Below are positions 24,652 through 33,569 of a DNA stretch of 64,000 bases, piece by piece. Location of the stretch: contig CAWHWQ010000001.1 of assembly GCA_963833095.1 (NCBI GenBank), forward strand, positions 320,001 through 384,000, given 5' to 3'. Both the position numbers and the translations under genes were made by a program. Every line of letters starts with the position of its first letter. Within the stretch, counting starts at the first letter, position 1. The notes beneath the pieces were generated by a model that made no database searches, had not been told where the DNA came from, and worked only from the letters and a program-made list of their open reading frames with translations. This stretch comes from Vulcanimicrobiota bacterium (GTDB lineage Bacteria > Vulcanimicrobiota > Vulcanimicrobiia > Vulcanimicrobiales > Vulcanimicrobiaceae).

Positions 24652-25453
24652 GGTTATTAAGTTGAGAAACGGCGCGATGTCAGCGCGGTCGACTTCCATG
24701 CCGACGCCCCGCGTGTGATAGCGAATATCGTGAAAGTCCATACCGGCGGTCATCACTAAGCCGTAGCGCGCGGCGGTCTCGCGAAAGATTTGGATATCTT
24801 CGCGCGTCGTGTAACGGATAGAAGACTTCCAATCCGCGCAGCCCTTGCGGTGCGAGTTCGTCGATCAGGTTGCGATCTTTGAGCCGGCCGGGATGTGCCA
24901 GAACCGCGACACCGCCGGCGGCGGAAACCCGTTCGATGGCCTCCTGCGGCGTGATGTGCAGTGAAGGAACGTAGCCCGGCATCCCGGTGCGCAACAGATA
25001 GCGGAACGCATATTCAATATCGGGGACGAGCCCTTTGGCGATAAGCGCCTTGGCCACGTGCGGACGCCCAATGGCCTTGGCGTCGGGGGCTTCGCGCAAA
25101 ACCTCGTCATAGGTGATGCCGTATCCCGCGCGCTGGAGCTGATCCACCATGCGCTGCGCCCGAACGCGCCGCGCGTCGCGATTGCGTTCGATCATTGCGA
25201 CCAGTTCAGGCGCATCAGCCGGCATGCCGTAGCCGAGCACGTGAACCTCGTTCCCGCGATAGGTCGTATTGATCTCGACGCCGGTAACCACCCGCGCACC
25301 CGGCGGCGGCGTAAACTTTCCGTACGCCGACATCGTGTCGTGATCGCTGATCGAAAAGACTTCCACCGCGCGCTCGCCCATGAAATCGGCAAGCGCCTGC
25401 GGGGTAAGCGTGCCATCGCTTTCGCTGGTATGGCTATGAAAGTCGACGATCAC
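24649..25453 (-). CDS. PHP-domain metal-dependent phosphoesterase (TrpH/YciV-like); one indel near 24800
   Basis: DFHSHTSESDG, SDHD, GVEI, GRPH, LAHP; C-terminus TAGMDFH...NLIT* in the shifted frame. Confidence 0.9.
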
Positions 25454-26244
25454 GCGATGCCGCGAAGGAAGACGCGCTTGATCTCCGTCGCGCGCCCGCT
25501 TGTCCGGTCGATGCGCACGACCGCGGCGCAGAATTGTTTGGTCCCGCTCTTCTGCACGCTGAATTTGTCGGACAACCCGGTGAGAAAGCGGTCGAGCACT
25601 GCTCCTTGCTCCATACCGATCACGCCGTCGGTTGGTCCAGTCATGCCGAGATCGGTGATGTAGGCGGTGCCGCCGGGAAGGATCTGCTCGTCGGCGGTCT
25701 GCACGTGCGTATGCGTGCCGTAGATTGCCGAGGTGCGTCCATCCAGGAAACGCCCCAGCGCGACTTTTTCCGAGGTTGCTTCGGCATGTACGTCGACGAT
25801 GATGATCGGCGTTTGCACGCGCAGTTCGTCGACCAAGGCGTCGGCGCAGCGGAACGGATCGTCGACCGTTGGCATGAAGGTGCGGCCCATCACGTTGAGG
25901 ACCCCAACGGTCACGCCGTCCGCGACGAACGTGCCATGGCCTTTGCCCGGGAGGCTGGGGGGATAGTTGGCCGGACGCAGCACACGGTCGCTCGATTCCA
26001 AGTACGTCTTGAAATCACGCTTATCGAAAATGTGATTGCCGCTGGTAATGAAATCGACGCCGGTTTCGAACAGCTCATCGGCGGTTTGCGCGGTCAAACC
26101 AAAACCGCCCGCGACGTTTTCGCCGTTGGCGATGCAGGCGTGAATCTGATACTGCTCGCGAACTCCCGCCAGGCAGCGCTTGAGCGTGTCGCGGCCGGGC
26201 GAGCCGACCACGTCACCGATCAATAGGAGATTGAGTGTGTTCAG
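25450..26244 (-). CDS. ymdB: YmdB/TIGR00282-family metallophosphoesterase, probable CTG start
   Basis: IGDVVG, NGENVAGG, SGNH, DVHAEATSEK, GTHTHVQT; GGGGAG 7 nt before CTG. Confidence 0.9.
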   Translation of the reverse strand: MNTLNLLLIGDVVGSPGRDTLKRCLAGVREQYQIHACIANGENVAGGFGLTAQTADELFETGVDFITSGNHIFDKRDFKTYLESSDRVLRPANYPPSLPGKGHGTFVADGVTVGVLNVMGRTFMPTVDDPFRCADALVDELRVQTPIIIVDVHAEATSEKVALGRFLDGRTSAIYGTHTHVQTADEQILPGGTAYITDLGMTGPTDGVIGMEQGAVLDRFLTGLSDKFSVQKSGTKQFCAAVVRIDRTSGRATEIKRVFLRGIA

Positions 26245-26451
26245 TGTGCTGCTCCCCAAGTACCGGTGCACCCGCTGGAAGCGCCGCTGGCAAGAATCGA
26301 GGCGCGAGGAGGGAGCATAACCGTAGTTCTGTGACCGACGAGCAACGAAGAGTCCTGCCAACGGCGCCTCAGCCCGAAGGGTTGCGTCATCGGCATTCCG
26401 CGAACGCCGATGAGCGCAACGGGTGTATCGCTACTTGGGGAGCAGCACACT
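26243..26451. mobile_element. 209-bp structured MITE-like element with perfect 20-bp terminal inverted repeats
   Basis: AGTGTGCTGCTCCCCAAGTA (26243-26262) / TACTTGGGGAGCAGCACACT (26432-26451); nested internal stems; no convincing ORF. Confidence 0.65.
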
Positions 26452-27001
26452 AGCGGCGAGACGAAGCCTTCGCTTTCCGTTGCGCTTTCAAGAAGTAGAC
26501 CAGCACGCGCGTCTCTTCGCGAAAACCGACCAGACTCTTGGATTGCGCTGGATCGCGTAGCGCCTCGATCGCATAGAGCGCCGCCTCGTCTTGCGCAGCA
26601 GGATCGGCGTCGAGGTGATCTTCCGGTTGCGGATTGCGAACCAGCACCTCGGGATAGCGTTCGCGCAAGAGTGCGCCGATTAGTTCCAGCTCTTCCTTCG
26701 AAAAGCTGTCCGTGTCGCGAGTCACGTGAATGAAGGTCGTCGAGCGGTCGCCTTCGCATTCGACGCGCGTCAATCGCGCTTCGTCCTTGGCGAGCATCAG
26801 GTAGCCATTGATGTGATCGTCGATCGTCTCGGCCAGCGCCGCCTGCGCGCGCTTATCCAGCCGGGCGCGCAACGCAAACGTCAGCCGGACGCTGCCCTCG
26901 GCCGGCATCGAGCGAATCGATGCCAGTTCCGGGAAGCGCACCAGCAGTGCGCACACCAAGCTGACAGTGTCAGCGTTCTCTAAGGGAAGACGGCTATTCA
27001 T
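26450..27001 (-). CDS. Conserved hypothetical protein upstream of ymdB
   Basis: DTVSLVCALLVRFPEL...LVGFREETRVLVYF; resembles proteins recalled between rny and ymdB in Firmicutes (not searched). Confidence 0.7.
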   Translation of the reverse strand: MNSRLPLENADTVSLVCALLVRFPELASIRSMPAEGSVRLTFALRARLDKRAQAALAETIDDHINGYLMLAKDEARLTRVECEGDRSTTFIHVTRDTDSFSKEELELIGALLRERYPEVLVRNPQPEDHLDADPAAQDEAALYAIEALRDPAQSKSLVGFREETRVLVYFLKAQRKAKASSRR

Positions 27002-27057
27002 GATCGGGTCCACCTGATACGACGTGGCCTCCAGGCACCCCCTGCGGTCCACGTAGA

Positions 27058-27627
27058 ATGGTAACCAATGTGAGACCCCGGCAGTTGCCCGGCCTCGCCA
27101 TCTTGGGGTTGCTTGCCTCGCTTATCGCCCACACGGCGAGCTACGGCGGCAATCACGAGCTCGGCGGCGCCTACCACTCGACGCTCGAACTCCTGGCCCT
27201 CGTGGGCGCAGGGGCCTTTGCCGCGTCGCTGGTGGCATTTGCCTGGCTTGGAGCACGGCGCCACGCCGACGGCTCGATTCTGGCCGCCGCATTGCGGCCG
27301 CTGATTCCATCGGGAGCGCCCCTGGCGGTCAGCGCCAGCCTTTGGTTTGGGCTGATCGAAAGTCTCGAGCCCGAGCATCTCTGGCATGCCTCTCTTCTGG
27401 CTGTCGCTCTTTGCTTGATTGCGGCCAGCTTGCTGGTTGCGTTCTTGGCGAGCGCGGTCGTGCGTGCCGTCGCCGCGATCGTTCTTGCGATCGCGCGCGA
27501 GCCATTTGTCCGCCGGCCGGTTTGCTATCGCCGCCGCTTCGCTCATCGCTCCTCTGCGCGCCGCGCCGTTTTCGTCTACCGGCGCTTCGCCCGGCCTCCG
27601 CCGGGCCTGATGCTACTCCCCGTTTAG
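27058..27627 (+). CDS. His-rich 4-TM membrane protein with a C-terminal RPPP motif; candidate arrest-peptide leader (start ATG 27058 or GTG 27070)
   Basis: Four hydrophobic segments; loops AHTASYGGNHELGGAYH and EPEHLWH; Arg-rich tail ending RRFARPPPGLMLLPV*. Confidence 0.7.
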   Translation: MVTNVRPRQLPGLAILGLLASLIAHTASYGGNHELGGAYHSTLELLALVGAGAFAASLVAFAWLGARRHADGSILAAALRPLIPSGAPLAVSASLWFGLIESLEPEHLWHASLLAVALCLIAASLLVAFLASAVVRAVAAIVLAIAREPFVRRPVCYRRRFAHRSSARRAVFVYRRFARPPPGLMLLPV

Positions 27628-27651
27628 CATCACTTCAGTTTCAGAGGAGTA
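27608..27651 (+). promoter_or_regulatory. Hairpin with an anti-SD sequence able to sequester the receptor RBS
   Basis: TGATGCTA(27608-15)/TAGCATCA(27625-32) stem; TACTCC(27614-19) is complementary to GGAGTA(27646-51). Confidence 0.6.
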
Positions 27652-27654
27652 CCC

Positions 27655-30079
27655 ATGTCTCGATGGATCGCGGCCGTCGATTGCCGCGTGCATATTTTTT
27701 TCCACCGCGCCTGCGCTTGCCGCTGTCACAGGCTTCGTACGCGGCGTAATCACTGAATCGGGTTCGCCGGCGGCCGGCGCATCGGTTACACTCACTGGCG
27801 AAGGGTCGCGCTTTGCTACCATGACGAACGCTCGAGGCGAGTACTCGTTCGCTGCGATTCCGTTCGGGCGTTACCAGCTCGTGGTCCATCGCGGCGGCGC
27901 GGAAGACCGCAGCGCCGAGGTCGAGGTTTCGGGCGACTCGGTTTCCACCGTCAACATCGACTTGCTCAAAACCATTGCTGTCACCGCCGTCAGCGCAAGC
28001 GCGGGCGCAAGCGGCACACCGGTTGCAGTTACCACCATCGACCGCGCACAGATCGACGATTCCCCCAATCGCGACAGCCTCAATAAGTTGATCACCACCG
28101 TGCCTGGCGCGGTCTCGTTCTCCTATAATGAGCCGGTGATCAACGGTTTCCATGGCGTGACCTACGAAATCGACGGCGCCCCGCTCCCGCTCGCGACCAC
28201 GTCAAACTTTGCCGAGATCGTGGATCCCAAAGATATCGATTCCCTGGAGATCTACACCGGTGCGATTCCCGCCGAATTCGGCGGCGACCGTATGGGTGCG
28301 GTGGTGAACATCATCACCGACCGGTTTGCCAACATCCCGGAAGGGACGTACGGGACGATTACCGGCGGCGGCGGCAATCAGGGACAAGCGTTGGGGCAGC
28401 TTGATACCGTTTCCCGCTTCGGGAACAACGAGGTTTTCCTCAATTTCAATGCATCTAGCACAAATCGCGGGATTGACGCTCCCACGTATACGCCGATTCA
28501 CGATGCCAGCTCAGCCAATGACCAGTTTCTACGCTGGGTTACGAAGCTCAACGATCGCTCGACGCTGGCCTTCGATTTTTCGAATCAATTCTCGCAGTTT
28601 CAAATCCCGATCAACACCGATCCAAACAATATCAACGATCCGATCTACGCGATTCCGGGCACCGATGACACGCAGCTGGAATACGATCGTTTCGCCAATC
28701 TTAATTTCACGCAGGTGTCGCGCGACGGCAACGGCGTCTTCCAGTTGATTCCGTGGTTCCGTTCGACCCGCGTCAACTATGACGGGGATCTCGCTGCCGA
28801 TGTCCAGGGGATGGGGCCAAACTTCGGCTGCGCAAACTATCCGGACTGCGCCTCCGACACGCCTCCCGATCCCGACTACATCAACAACGTCGGCCTCGCG
28901 CAAACCTCATACGCAAACTACCTCGGCCTGCGGGTATCGGAACTGCGTTCGAGCGACCGCCACACTTGGAAGGTCGGCCTTGACGTCAACCGTTCGAATT
29001 CAACGGGGTCGCAAACATATGCCTGTTATTACGTTGGCTGCGCGTTGCCGAGCGGCGGCGTGACGCCGCCAGTCGCGACGCCGTACTCTGCCTCGTCATC
29101 ATCGCAAGCGCAAGCCGGATCGCAGATCGGAATCTACGCCCAAGACAAGTGGCAGGCGTCGCAAAATGTCGTCTTCGACTACGGAATTCGCTATGATCAC
29201 TCGACGGGGTATACCAGCGGGTATATGATCGAACCGCGGTTCGGCGTGAACGTCTCCGACGGCGGACGCAACGTCTTCCACCTGTTCTACGGGCGCTACT
29301 ACGCGGCGCCGCTTCTTGAAGACGTGCGTCAAGCCTGCGTGATCTTTGCCGCGCAGGGCGGATGTTCAACCACTGCGCCGCCCTATGACCTCCAGCCCGA
29401 AATGGACAGCTACTACGAAATCGGGCTCCAGCATATCTTCAGCGGCAACCTTACCGGCTGGGTGAACCTCTATGAGAAGAACGTTGTCAACGTGCTCGAC
29501 ACGACGCAGCTTTTGAACACGCCGCTCTTTGCCGTCTACAACAACGCGATCGGGCACGCGCAGGGACTCGAGATCCGGCTGCAAGACCGCCAAAGTAACG
29601 GCAACAACTGGTTCTTCACCTCGACGATCTCCGAATCGCTCGCGGGTGGCATCTCGGGTTCGACGTTCCTGTTTCCGCCGGATGTGAACCAGGGGTTACC
29701 GCTCTCGTCGCCAGCGCAGCTCAGTATCGAAGATCACTCGCAGCTCGTCGACTCCACGGCGGGGTACACGGCGCACTTCGGCGGGCACCGCGCTTGGTTT
29801 GCGACGCTGCAAGCCGATTACGGAAGCGGGTTCCCCGTCCAGTTCGAAGACGCGAACGTCAACCTGAGCGGAACGCTTCCAGCGCACACGACGTTCGACT
29901 TTAGCACGGGGCGGATCGTCGGCGCCGGGGTCGGACCGGATTCCAAGGGCCTCGGCGTCACGCTCGATGTGCAGAACCTGCTCAATCACCAATACGTGAT
30001 CAAGATCGCGAACGGATTCAACACGACGCAGATCGCGAACTCGCGCACGTTTCTGCTCCGCTTTACGCAGCCGTTTTAG
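27655..30079 (+). CDS. TonB-dependent receptor with an N-terminal carboxypeptidase-regulatory-like domain (indel near 27679)
   Basis: GAGGAG RBS plus signal peptide; plug (IDGAP..., LEIYTGAIPAEFG...AVVNIIT); barrel (YAQDKW, GIRYD, NLLNHQY); terminal F. Confidence 0.9.
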
Positions 30080-30091
30080 AAAGTTGCTTAT

Positions 30092-30614
30092 ATGATTCAC
30101 CTATTCTCGCGCTTTTCGCGGTATTGCAATCGCGGCAATTGCCGCGGTCGCGATCCCCGCAAATGCAATGAACATGGGAACGGGCGTTACCTTAACGAAG
30201 GTCGCCGGGCCGTACAAACTCGTGCTCCAACTTCTGCCTGCTGAGCCGTTCTACACACAAGGCCAGTACGCCAAAGAGCACCCCAAAGATGGGATGCTCG
30301 TCGTCGGAGGCGCAACCCCGCTTGCGCTCAACGCCGCATCGCATCCCAATCATCATCTAATCGTTCACGTCTACAATGCCGCGAGCGGGAAGGCCGTCAC
30401 CGATGCAAAAGTGACGATCAGATATACGACGGTGTCGGGCGCGACTGATAGTCTTCCGGTGGTCGAAATGCAGGCGATCGGGAAGGGGCCGCAATCGACG
30501 CACTACGGGAATAATCTCAACCTTCCCGACGGTACCTGGACTGTTTCCGTCACGGCGAACGGGGCTGCGGCCACATTCACGGTGACGGCACAGGCCCCCA
30601 AGATGAAAATGTGA
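30092..30614 (+). CDS. Secreted P19/Tp34/FetP-like or YtkA-like metal-binding protein (indel in the signal-peptide region)
   Basis: HPNHHLIVH...VVEMQ...GPQSTHYGNNLNL; Met-rich termini MNMG / KMKM. Confidence 0.6.
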
Positions 30615-30699: not shown

Positions 30700-33097
30700 T
30701 TACGGGCTAAACCGGATGCCCATGCTGAAGGTGCGCGGGGGAGCGTAATGGTTCCCCTGCGCATTGAGCAGCGTGACGTAGTAGCGGTCGTTGAGCAGGT
30801 TTTGAATGTTGAAGGTGAGCGCGGTCTTCGGCGCGATCGCGATGCCTTTCTCGACCGAGAAGATCGTGTGTGGCGTTTCTTTGCAGTAGCCCGGCGTCGT
30901 GTCCGGGCATACGGCCGACGAGAGGCCGCTGCCGTATTCGCCATCCAGCGATAACCAACCATTGTGCTTGTCGCGCAACAGCACGCCGCTCGCGACGCTG
31001 TAAGCGCTGCTCGTGATCGGCAGGCGTAAAGCCCGTCGGCTGGCCGAAACACGGCGCGAGCAATTGCGTTTCGCAACCGCTGTTCAGCGAGATCACGTGC
31101 GCGACCGAAGCGTAAAAACGACCGCCCCGCGCGAGCGGCTGCGTGTAGTTCAGCGCCTCTTGCGAGAGCCGGCCCAGCGTATAATTGATGTCCTGATGCA
31201 GCAGCGTCACGCCGACTTGGGTGTCGTCGATCAAATCATTCGCGTTCTTCTGCCAGACGCGAAAGCCGAGGTCGCCGGAGCCGAGCGGAATGTGGCCGCC
31301 CAGTTCGAGTTGCGTATCGCGCTCGGGCTTGAGATCGAATTGTGCGGCAGTTGGCTGCAAAGGCAGATTGAGCAGTTGCGCCGCATCCGGACTGACGTTT
31401 TCGAGCGAGAACGGTTCGAAGAACCGCCCGACGTACGCGTAAACGTTGGCCCGCGGTCCCCAGAACCGCGTCAGCTTCAGGCGCGGGCTGAAGGCGCCGA
31501 ATCCCTCGCCAAAATCAGTCGACTTGATCGAGAAGAAATCGTAGCGCAAACCATAGTCGGCTTCCCACAGGCTGCTCATCCGCCAGCTGTCCTGAATGTA
31601 GGACTGATAGGTATTGCCGAGGTTCGGCGCATTGTCGACGACCGTCGTGGGCACGTCGGGCGTGCCCGGCGTAAGAATCGGAGCCAGAAAGTTATTGGGC
31701 TGGAGCGTGATCGCGTAATACTTCAAGATGCGCGCCAGATCATACGAACCGCCGGCCGCGATGGTGTGCTTCCCGAATTGCTGGGTGTAGTCGGCCTGCA
31801 TGATGTAGTCGATCGCAGTGCGCTGGTCGGCCAGCGAGTAGGCGCAGGTCGTCGGGAGATACGAATCAGGGTTACTCATGGCGTCCGCGCAATCGGAAGA
31901 CGTGCCCCCGTTGCCGAACGGCGGCGGCGTCACGTTGAGCGACTCGCCGTAGATGAAATCGTTGTTCGGATCGCCGTAGTCCGCGATCTTGGACGATTTG
32001 AACGCCGGGCCATAAGTGATTGCGCCGGTGTCGCCGATCGCGTGATGAAATTGTACTGCGAGAAACGTGTCTTCTTGCGTCTCATTGTCGTCGGTGTCGG
32101 CCGGTTCGCCAAACTGTATATCGTTGGGAATCTGGAACGTGCTAAGACCGTGAATGAACGTGATGTTAGTAAAGCTGTTCTTGCCGCCGGGCAGCGTGAA
32201 GCGCGCGAACTGGTTGACATCGCTCGCATCATTATGCGGTGAATCGAAATCGGGCGGGTCGAGGCCGCGAGTCGTTCCCTCGCCGCTGAGCGCAATATCG
32301 TAACCGCCGCCGCCGGCGATAGGCGCGTGATAGCCGATCGTTGAGATCGCCGTGCCGTAGGAGCCGTAAGAGAAATTGCCGTCGAAGCCGGCCGGTCCCG
32401 TACCGGCGCGCGTCGCCATATTGAAGACCGACCCAAAACGCAGCCCGTATTGCGCCGGGTATGCTCCCTCGACGAGATCGATGTACGAAAGGTCGTTAAG
32501 ATTGATCTCCCCGCCGATGTCACGGTTGAGCTCCTGTGGAAGCGGCACGCCATCGAGCATGTAATTGATTACGCCGTGGTCGCCGTTCATATGCACCACA
32601 CCGTTTGCCCCGCGAACGGCGCCGGGCATCTGAATCTCCATCTCGGAGAAGCTGTTGTTGTAGGGCATCTCGGTGATCTGCGTGCGATTCAACGCCACGT
32701 CGCTGCCGCTACCGCGCAGCACGCCCGCCGCACCCGCGTTCACCGCAACCGCGCCGATTTCTTTGAGCGGCACAAGGGCGAGCGTAATGGTCGCGCCGCC
32801 GCTGCTCAGATCGACGCGCACGTTGCCTTGGTGGTCGCCGGATTTCGCTTCAACCGTATACGTGCCCAGCGCAAGCGGCGGGAATGCAAAGTGCCCTTGC
32901 GCGTCGGTTGTGGTCTTGACCGTCAGGTTGTTGCCGGTCGCGGTCACTTCAAGACGCGCGACCGGATGCCCGTCCTGCGTTACCGTGCCCGAAAGAAACG
33001 CATTCGCGTTGGCCGCGCGCGACGGCGCGGTCCACCATCCCATGAAGGCAACAAGAATGAGAGCAGCGCGCAAATAGCGCCGCGGCGAAGGTGGCAT
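30700..33097 (-). CDS. TonB-dependent receptor (paralog of 27655-30079); indel near 31000
   Basis: Signal peptide, plug LDGVP...GAYPAQYG, YIQDSW, GLRYD; C-terminus NLLNDRYY...PRTFSMGIRF in the shifted frame. Confidence 0.9.
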
Positions 33098-33188: not shown

Positions 33189-33569
33189 GTGAATCGGACC
33201 ACCCGGAAGACGAGGCAGCGCGACGCGGTTCAGGCGGCGCTCGAGGGGGCCGAGCGTCCGCTGAGCGTCGGCGAGCTCCTGGAGGTTGCCTCCAAACAAG
33301 TCGATGGGCTCGGTGTCGCGACCGTCTATCGCACGGTCAGCGCTTTAGCCGAAGACGGCTGGATCGAGGCGGTCGAGATCCCCGGGGAACCCGTTCGGTA
33401 CGAGCGCTCGAACAAGGAGCACCATCATCATTTTCAATGCGAGACATGCGACCGCGTCTTCGATATCGCGGGCTGCGTCGAGAGCATTCGAAAACTCGTG
33501 CCCCCGAAATTCCACGTCCGTGGCCATGCCGTAACGTTCTTTGGAACCTGCGCCGGCTGCACGAGCTAG
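33189..33569 (+). CDS. Fur-family transcriptional regulator (Fur/Zur-like)
   Basis: TRQR, ATVYRT, HHHHFQCETC, GTCAGC. Confidence 0.92.
   Translation: MNRTTRKTRQRDAVQAALEGAERPLSVGELLEVASKQVDGLGVATVYRTVSALAEDGWIEAVEIPGEPVRYERSNKEHHHHFQCETCDRVFDIAGCVESIRKLVPPKFHVRGHAVTFFGTCAGCTS

Follow-up and report, generated by a model that had tools for sequence, protein, structure and literature searches.

Metal sensing by a nascent chain is known from two DUF2946 proteins, CruR and CutF, and from the census of RAPP/RGPP leaders published in 2025 (PMC9426467, PMC9973294, PMC12992588). In our study, a gene of a Vulcanimicrobiota bacterium has been compared with these systems. The window analysed is the whole stretch of 64,000 nucleotides (GCA_963833095.1, contig CAWHWQ010000001.1, positions 320,001 to 384,000 of the forward strand), and the element in question, here called the switch gene, lies at 27058-27627 of its forward strand, directly ahead of a TonB-dependent receptor gene. 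On balance, the switch gene probably encodes an arrest switch of the RAPP class, built into a polytopic membrane protein with a His/Glu site, which controls translation of the receptor through sequestration of its Shine-Dalgarno (SD) sequence.

CruR (Bp2923) of Bordetella pertussis is a DUF2946 protein with a signal peptide, a CXXC motif and a RAPP motif at a fixed spacing from it; the regulation requires the RAPP and its output is Rho-dependent across the 162-nucleotide cruR-bfrG spacer (PMC9426467). In CutF, a DUF2946 protein of Rhodobacter capsulatus, a stall-like motif and the Cu site are needed to open the stem-loop over the cutO SD (PMC9973294). According to the available text of Fujiwara et al. 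(EMBO J 2025, PMC12992588), RxPP in which x stands for Gly, Ala, Ser or Pro forms part of arrest-inducing sequences, an Ala-to-Pro change partly retains the arrest of ApdA and ApdP, and proteomes are depleted of RAPP-like motifs. The same source describes small proteins with C-terminal RAPP or RGPP as enriched upstream of genes for TonB-dependent receptors, YcnI, PCu(A)C and PepSY. The mechanism of the RAPP arrest at the peptidyl-transferase centre is described in PMC10951233.

The switch gene resembles cruR in being the first gene of a putative metal-uptake operon headed by a TonB-dependent receptor (bfrG in the case of CruR), in its C-terminal R-x-P-P a few residues before the stop codon, in the fixed spacing between the putative metal-binding residues and this motif, and in the proposed logic, in which metal would relieve the arrest and turn uptake off (PMC9426467). 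It differs from CruR in that DUF2946 is absent, four membrane helices (as judged from a structural model) are found in place of a signal peptide, the putative ligands are His/Glu (H25, H33, E101, E104) and not CXXC, the motif is mostly RPPP and not RAPP, and a structured spacer of 24-68 nucleotides with a sequestered SD stands against 162 nucleotides with Rho termination. With CutF it has in common a stem-loop, here a predicted one, shielding the SD of the next gene, and the co-translational targeting of the protein to the membrane. CutF, however, is a secreted Sec substrate with a CxxxC motif and controls a detoxifying oxidase which Cu switches on, and in the available text no strong arrest was seen with its motif alone (PMC9973294); whereas, the switch protein is polytopic, carries His/Glu and precedes uptake genes.

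The leaders of the 2025 census are likewise small (<300 residues), bear a localization signal and a near-C-terminal R-x-P-P, and lie directly upstream of TonB receptors or copper genes, but almost all of the TonB class have a signal sequence where the switch family has four membrane helices (PMC12992588). The census, as its available text describes it, covers RAPP and RGPP only, so that the 232 RPPP members of the switch family would be missed, while its 11 RAPP members could be listed in the source data. In SecM, MifM, VemP and ApdA/ApdP (PMC7897499, PMC10987492, PMC10951233), as proposed for the switch protein, translation halts close to the C-terminus of a protein which is secreted or targeted to the membrane, and their stalled ribosome melts a helix hiding the SD until a pulling force on the nascent chain releases it; with ApdA and ApdP the likeness extends to the R-A-P-P / R-A-G-P chemistry at the peptidyl-transferase centre. 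The SecM-type systems, as these sources describe them, act as monitors of Sec or YidC, with secA, secDF or yidC as the regulated genes; in contrast, the switch gene precedes metal-uptake genes, and its conserved product has four helices and probably a ligand site. In the literature searches made, no report linking Eremiobacterota to arrest peptides or describing RPPP leaders before TonB receptors was found. The preliminary description of this DNA had supposed an undescribed family. That is borne out for the protein family, which is new, but not for the class, since RAPP-like leaders before TonB receptors or copper genes are already published with CruR, CutF and the census (PMC12992588, PMC9426467, PMC9973294).

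The features of the switch gene are as follows.

27058..27627, forward strand: switch gene (189 residues, four predicted membrane helices), from translation of the open reading frame (ORF), homologs and an AlphaFold2 (AF2) model.
27130..27378, forward strand: codons of the candidate metal site, H25 (27130), H33 (27154), H40 (27175), E101 (27358), E104 (27367) and H107 (27376), from conservation, with inferred topology.
27493..27591, forward strand: Arg-rich, putatively cytoplasmic linker R146 to A178, of conserved length, its structure predicted with low confidence.
27592..27603, forward strand: R179-P180-P181-P182, codons CGG CCT CCG CCG, proposed arrest site, from motif conservation and the analogy to RAPP.

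The ORF 27058-27627 is a real, conserved gene. Its GC content by codon position (0.71/0.54/0.76) resembles that of the real genes of this 61.9% GC genome, and GTG 27070 is a possible alternative start which would give 185 residues. Pfam and NCBIfam scans of the protein returned no match, and DUF2946 (PF11162) in particular was matched neither by the window protein at E<=0.01 nor by any of 31 aligned members at E<=10. A word-indexed search gave 188 proteins at E<=0.01, nearly all of 180-190 residues, from sources whose names indicate Baltobacteraceae / Eremiobacterota. A profile search of 1.84 billion representatives gave 217 at E<=0.001, of which 160 remained at 1e-10 and 85 at 1e-30, and in a protein atlas the family was met as unnamed clusters only, commonest in Vulcanimicrobiota. 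Among 401 sampled genomes of the phylum (a tally which takes in the unpublished genomes G178, G264, G213, G248, G276 and G233) the family is present in 195: it was found in 193 of the 296 genomes of the window's own family-level group and in 1 of 30 of group f3, the sole outside match being weak (E 9.5e-4, genome G233), and the other 19 family-level groups sampled (74 genomes) gave no match. The switch family belongs to one family-level lineage of Eremiobacterota/Vulcanimicrobiota.

Several genomes have 2-4 matches, which are paralogous copies. For the genomic comparison 51 copies from 50 loci in 50 genomes were used, 13 in the window's genus and 38 outside it; these loci are kin, so that all counts from them overstate independence.

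The AF2 model, built from the 31 aligned members, has a mean predicted local distance difference test (pLDDT) of 80.7 and a predicted template modeling score (pTM) of 0.70. It consists of four long hydrophobic helices and one short helix (residues 7-29, 37-68, 72-82, 86-103 and 113-150), with low confidence from residue 151 to the end. Arg residues are found in the N-terminus (R6, R8), in the 65-72 loop (RRH) and in the tail, and because all three carry Arg, the positive-inside rule would leave both termini and loop 2 on the cytoplasmic side and H25, H33, H40, E101, E104 and H107 on the periplasmic one. In 223 full-length members, H25 is conserved in 222, H33 in 223, H40 in 186, E101 in 223, E104 in 222 and H107 in 205; since possession of the motif was the criterion by which these rows were chosen, their R179-P182 counts are circular, but not those for His and Glu. 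Moreover, H25, H33, E101 and E104 are nearly invariant even in relatives of 39% identity. The His cluster together with E101-x-x-E104, an ExxE motif, forms a candidate metal site. No conserved Cys pair (CXXC or CxxxC) was found in the 31 aligned members, the invariant residues of which are His, Glu, Gly and Pro. A fold search of the four-helix model against the PDB gave no significant match, with generic helical bundles at best (E 0.9).

From R146 to R179 there are 33 residues. The exit tunnel holds 30-40 residues, and an inserting helix pulls hardest at about such a distance. The distance from E104 to R179 is also kept, at 74-75 residues in 182 of the 223 members (range 72-79).

Among 262 family proteins, R-[P/A]-P-P was found no more than 15 residues from the C-terminus in 243 (RPPP in 232, RAPP in 11), the remaining 19 being fragments or misframed predictions. 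It is present in all 51 genomic copies, as RAPP in three (L013, L044 and the second copy in L050), and one clade of the family has the canonical RAPP. The residues before it are nearly fixed as R-R-F-A, with the variants Y, S, G, V and T, and the tail beyond it varies in sequence and covers 0-11 residues; the window protein ends in RRFARPPP plus a seven-residue tail. Among the small coding-like ORFs of the genome, the switch gene alone has a convincing C-terminal RxPP. By analogy with the RAPP arrests, the proposed geometry assigns P181 to the P site and P182 to the A site. The preliminary description had read the protein in much the same way: the membrane ORF with His clusters is conserved and the noted His residues are the conserved ones, the Arg-rich linker of about 33 residues up to RPPP keeps its spacing, the lack of a CxxC which sets it apart from CruR and CutF extends to the aligned members, and the comparison of homologs found R-x-P-P, the His residues, the linker length and the adjacency to receptors all conserved.

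The same motif may, in principle, cause a polyproline pause governed by elongation factor P (EF-P), where EF-P would set the length of the RPPP stall and the receptor would follow the translational state of the cell, not metal. Without EF-P, RPPP is the strongest XPPP stall in E. coli (PMC4176338), and EF-P, which may relieve RPPP pauses, is encoded in the genome. Further, RPPP is not visibly depleted in a crude ORF set of the genome (5 observed, 6.4 expected); in this set RAPP (2 against 14.9), RGPP (1 against 9.8) and RAGP (8 against 22.9) are depleted and LPPP and APPP enriched. However, RAPP replaces RPPP in 11 of 243 members and the RAPP/RGPP arrests are described as refractory to EF-P (PMC12992588), an efp knockout leaves the CruR regulation unaffected (PMC9426467), and the conserved, putatively periplasmic His/Glu site with its fixed spacing would have no role. 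A pause of this kind is therefore quite improbable as the explanation of the locus.

In almost every copy, the folds predict sequestration of the SD belonging to the next gene. Outside the window's genus its partner is the stall codons, which in most of these 38 copies read CGU CCU CCU CCG. CCT is otherwise rare in these loci, with 94 of the 1239 Pro codons (7.6%) of the flanking coding sequence, but it encodes 30 of 36 Pro residues at position 180 and 32 of 38 at position 181. A MAFFT alignment of the 38 junctions lost the register of the SD and alignment-free tests were used instead. When sliding 21-nucleotide windows of the ORF (about 166, overlapping) were paired with the 20 nucleotides preceding the next start, the best SD partner lay within 6 nucleotides of the R codon in 26/38 copies and the stall window ranked 7 or better in 30/38; the energies ran from -15 to -21 kcal/mol, whereas the medians were -6 to -14. 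The partition function from R-90 to start+15 gave a mean probability of 0.67 for the SD with the stall window, above 0.4 in 31/38 copies, though CCUCC is inherently anti-SD-like.

The flank of the stall codons covaries with the SD side: AUC occurs with GAUCGGAG, GUC with GACCGGAGG, GUG with CACCGAAGGAG, ACG ACC with UCGUCAGAGG, CGG with CCGAGGAG, CCU CCC CCG with GGGGAGG and CCU ACG AUC with GAUCGUAGG. In 36 unique copies, own partners gave -16.6 kcal/mol and swapped partners -14.0, and 0 of 5000 permutations were as good. The exact complement of the 5-mer at the codon-183 junction precedes the start codon in 18/38 copies, as compared to 15 of 532 tests for the complements of other classes; five junction classes were matched (GATCG, GACCG, CACCG, CGTAG, CCGAG), and the commonest matched junction, CGATCG, is palindromic, so in that class a shared motif is indistinguishable from pairing. 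The predicted anti-SD outside the window's genus consists of the R-P-P-P codons and the next codon, and the covariation supports the pairing. Most of these copies also have a GC hairpin (GCGCG UAA CGCGC), often extended by GCGAAC...GUUCGC, whose loop contains the stop codon or lies close to it; this hairpin is analogous to hairpin c of the window described below.

In the window's genus the Pro codons of the motif are mostly CCG and the stall window is a poor partner of the SD. The following RNA elements, all predicted from folds, surround the junction of the window.

27548..27556, forward strand: 5' strand of helix P1, GCTCCTCTG (GCUCCUCUG), codons R164-S-S-A167, predicted anti-SD, invariant in sequence in 13 genus relatives.
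27558..27585, forward strand: hairpin a within the loop of P1, GCGCCG / CGGCGC (27558-63/27580-85).
27589..27606, forward strand: hairpin b from the A-R-P-P-P-G codons, GCCCGGC / GCCGGGC (27589-95/27600-06).
27608..27632, forward strand: hairpin c of 8 bp, TGATGCTA / TAGCATCA (27608-15/27625-32), in the minimum free energy (MFE) and centroid folds.
27642..27650, forward strand: 3' strand of P1, CAGAGGAGT (CAGAGGAGU), SD of the receptor gene.

The junction of the window folds at -53.6 kcal/mol (z = -3.93), and none of 200 shuffles was as stable. P1 (27548-56 x 27642-50) contributes -15.7 kcal/mol, and the same MFE junction, with P1 enclosing hairpins a, b and c, is obtained in 12/13 loci of the genus, where the SD pairs with the -60..-30 window at a probability above 0.4 in 11/13. 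The 3' arm of hairpin c contains the stop codon TAG 27625-27627, and its 6-bp core is kept in 13/13 relatives, with two compensatory variants of one pair (L013, L020). An Rfam scan of 26900-27900 gave sub-threshold chance matches only. If P181 is in the P site (27598), a footprint of about +/-15 nucleotides would cover 27583-27613, and would thereby reach hairpin b as well as the 3' arm of hairpin a and the 5' arm of hairpin c while leaving P1 free.

A different wiring had been drawn for this junction in the preliminary description, which rightly named hairpin c but took TACTCC (27614-19), in its arm and loop, as the anti-SD of GGAGTA (27646-51), forming a helix or an H-type pseudoknot covered by the ribosome at RPPP. 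The six complementary bases (-8.4 kcal/mol), the conserved hairpin with its compensatory changes and the position of the site, where a ribosome stalled on P181 would have its leading edge, speak in its favour. P1 is, however, stronger by 7 kcal/mol, so that 27548-27556 out-competes TACTCC, and the comparison with homologs showed no conservation of TACTCC in the hairpin. The exact match is found only in L001, L002 and L004 (3/13); L010 has GGAGTA without TACTCC, whereas L007 and L012 have TACTCC with GGAGTT. In the ensemble, the probability of the SD pairing with R-3..R+20 is 0.00 in 12/13 loci, the window included, and 0.02 in L013, as against about 0.8 for 27532-27561, in a model without pseudoknots. 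It is very improbable that TACTCC is the operative anti-SD of this genus. The companion claim that a single stalled ribosome would free the SD is not supported here either, as the predicted partner 27548-27556 lies 42-50 nucleotides upstream of the P site and would stay uncovered.

The distance to the next gene bears on one more output. As in CruR, which of the RAPP leaders ahead of TonB transporters is the only one tested in the sources cited (PMC9426467), the stalled ribosome could block Rho loading and act on transcription termination between the genes, and not on the SD. The spacer from the switch gene to the next gene is 24-33 nucleotides in the window's genus and 31-68 elsewhere, with the exception of L042 and its read-through tail, against 162 in cruR-bfrG; it is highly structured, not C-rich and unstructured, and the covarying SD pairing would be left unexplained. 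An output of the CruR type is the most improbable of the possibilities considered here.

The proposed mechanism may be described as follows. The switch protein would be an inner-membrane protein with cytoplasmic N- and C-termini, four helices and the His/Glu site facing the periplasm, its tail serving as the R-x-P-P arrest module. In free mRNA, the SD of the next gene would be locked in a long-range helix. At the stall, about 35 residues would fill the exit tunnel and helix 4 would be just out of the ribosome. In most genera, where the partner strand is formed by the stall codons (CGU CCU CCU CCG and the next codon), a ribosome sitting on these codons would necessarily free the SD, and the receptor would be translated. 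In the window's genus, the partner strand appears to have moved about 45 nucleotides upstream (27548-27556). As P1 lies beyond the footprint, its opening would need a passing or stalled ribosome with a second one queued behind it, or steric hindrance. Insertion of helix 4, metal binding to the completed periplasmic site, or both, may release the arrest, upon which the helix would re-form and receptor synthesis would be turned off. The most likely polarity is that the metal-replete state is off, as in CruR.

A number of observations weigh against this mechanism, besides the kinship of the loci, the palindromic junction class, the EF-P gene and the undepleted RPPP already mentioned. The strong conservation of the four-helix bundle suggests that the mature protein has a job of its own. 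In the window's genus P1 is invariant and therefore shows no covariation, and its 5' strand lies outside the footprint of a single ribosome. The footprint models release the SD only modestly: the probability that it is unpaired rises in this genus from 0.16 in free RNA to 0.29 with one ribosome and 0.41 with a disome, and outside it from 0.18 to 0.36 with one ribosome and 0.36 with two; GC-rich alternative partners take over. Finally, the receptor frame of the window is broken by one extra base near 27675-27680.

The genes might, alternatively, be joined by plain translational coupling. The membrane protein would then itself work in uptake, for instance as a metal-binding partner in the inner membrane, RPPP would be kept for its mature function, and the helix would tie the receptor to upstream translation without regulated arrest or metal input. 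The strong conservation of the core with its His/Glu site and the location of the anti-SD away from the stall site in the window's genus agree with this. Upstream coding sequence which sequesters an SD is common in operons, and outside the window's genus a ribosome at the stop codon also raises the probability of an unpaired SD somewhat, from 0.18 to 0.26. On the other hand, the tail beyond the motif varies in length and sequence, and the motif lies in a disordered region at a fixed distance from the last helix. With R-[P/A]-P-P it corresponds exactly to the arrest class in print, and A and P are swapped at the tolerated position (PMC12992588). Moreover, in the other genera the anti-SD falls on the motif itself, is written in rare codons and shows covariation. 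Coupling alone is thus an unlikely account of the locus, and the arrest switch is preferred.

A more far-reaching form of the arrest switch may be put forward tentatively, and it is somewhat doubtful as a whole. In this form, sensor, arrest module and riboregulator would be united in one gene: the metal site would assemble while the C-terminus is held at the peptidyl-transferase centre, its occupancy would alter the pull and with it the lifetime of the R-P-P-P arrest, and the Pro codons would themselves be the anti-SD. The switch would then be the first polytopic, Cys-free co-translational metal sensor, private to Eremiobacterota, whose anti-SD strand moved in one genus without loss of the switch.

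The switch family would extend the principle of nascent-chain metal sensing to a different sensor architecture, polytopic and with a His/Glu site, in a largely uncultured phylum. As RPPP is invisible to a census of RAPP and RGPP, such switches are probably under-counted. A function is proposed here for an unnamed family of 217 representative clusters at E<=0.001. The family also provides an unusually clean natural experiment on RNA wiring, in which one protein module has two couplings to the SD, by way of the stall codons in most genera and by way of a remote strand in one, and concrete mutations of the stall codons, the anti-SD and the His/Glu site can separate arrest, pairing and sensing.

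Two genes follow the switch gene in the window.

27655..30079, forward strand: gene of a TonB-dependent receptor (signal peptide, CarboxypepD_reg and Plug domains, barrel), from domain matches; open frame 27722-30079.
30092..30614, forward strand: gene of a secreted FetP/P19/FtrA-like protein, from AF2 and Foldseek; open frame 30168-30614.

A receptor homolog lies directly downstream in 44 of the 51 copies (tblastn E<=1e-10; Pfam domains were checked for the window, L031 and L049). In five copies (L027, L032, L036, L044, L050) the next gene encodes a secreted protein of 301-304 residues beginning ...AQAHVVCGDRVFPTTLTMDDPGV, which had no Pfam match even at E<=10 when that of L032 was tested, and is always followed by a CopD-cytochrome c fusion. 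In L050 (genome G222, contig C9) two switch copies lie 3.7 kb apart, the RPPP copy before this set and the RAPP copy before a receptor. In the other two copies (L045, L047), a 17-codon ORF is followed by an AhpC/TSA-type thioredoxin-like protein and a BNR protein, with a cytochrome c bearing a YtkA-like domain additionally in L047. This 17-codon ORF (MSHLSRRSPPFPWRIRA / MFDLPRRPAPLLRHIRS) is conserved between the two loci, replaces the receptor start and overlaps the start of the thioredoxin-like gene. It could represent a second leader or what is left of a receptor signal peptide. The gene beyond the receptor is not conserved across genera, being an epimerase in three loci.

The third protein of the window belongs to a family of 228 proteins, typically of 172-184 residues, with the invariant motifs HPNHHL..H and M..G.G..STHYGNN and MGHMKM tails in many members; the window protein has HPNHHL..H, M..STHYGNN and a Met-rich C-terminus. 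In three records of metagenome-assembled genomes, the locus tags put this family two genes from the membrane protein. The AF2 model (pLDDT 83.8) gave FetP, FtrA, CrdA, P19, Tp34 and HftA as top Foldseek matches (E 9e-4 to 8e-3, probability 1.00), with template modeling (TM) values on target of 0.53-0.63 for the FetP/FtrA/P19/HftA chains and 0.62 for the best match (E 9e-4). The Pfam iron-transport family was not matched at E<=10, and YtkA-like alone appeared, below the cut-off (E 0.014). By its predicted structure, the third protein is P19-like at the level of the fold, not at that of Pfam. With P19, FetP, FtrA, Tp34 and the H. pylori CrdA it shares the fold, conserved His/Met and a Met/His-rich tail; it differs from the P19/FetP group in its identity of 9-14% and in its partner, a TonB receptor and not an Ftr1-type permease. 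The arrangement suggests that switch protein, receptor and P19-like protein form one metal-uptake operon. The signal is most likely copper, with iron second: copper is put first because of the downstream contexts (copper-flavoured genes, fold of the third protein), and iron second because of the ExxE motif, because of the role which P19 plays and because a gene of the Fur family lies at 33189-33569.

Sigma-70 and terminator scans gave nothing at the operon start or in the spacer between switch and receptor genes. One contig of an RNA library overlaps the start of the switch gene (27040-27185 only) and is uninformative on expression.

The receptor and the P19-like protein announced in the preliminary description are both present, but both genes are broken in frame in the assembly. 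All relatives begin the receptor at ATG followed by TCN CGN (MSRW/F...), which corresponds to ATG 27655 of the window ahead of its extra base; the third gene is similarly broken near 30119-30123. A frameshift in the T7 run 27695-27701 was considered and rejected on comparison with relatives. Broken receptors also occur in the relatives' loci L004, L019, L042 and L049. Up to position 27674 the public metagenome contigs (runs X1-X3) agree with the window, and they then continue as the signal-peptide allele of the relative L001, and among the public contigs of related strains none bridges 27675-27695; position 27674 is a strain-variable junction within the receptor signal peptide.

A second TonB receptor of the CarboxypepD_reg type is encoded on the reverse strand at 30707-33097, convergent with the P19-like gene and divergent from the Fur/PerR-family regulator gene on the forward strand at 33189-33569, and no leader ORF was seen before it. 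It shifts frame near its 3' end, at about 30985-31080. Assembly indels are likely behind the three single-base breaks, as the genome is 80.7% complete in 8 contigs.

On the other side, a protein of 200 residues without Pfam or NCBIfam match is encoded on the reverse strand at 26450-27052, divergent from the switch gene. It is found at the same place in 26 of 29 relatives' loci searched, matches only unnamed Vulcanimicrobiota clusters in the protein atlas, and its gene adjoins a YmdB-like phosphoesterase gene at 25450-26361.

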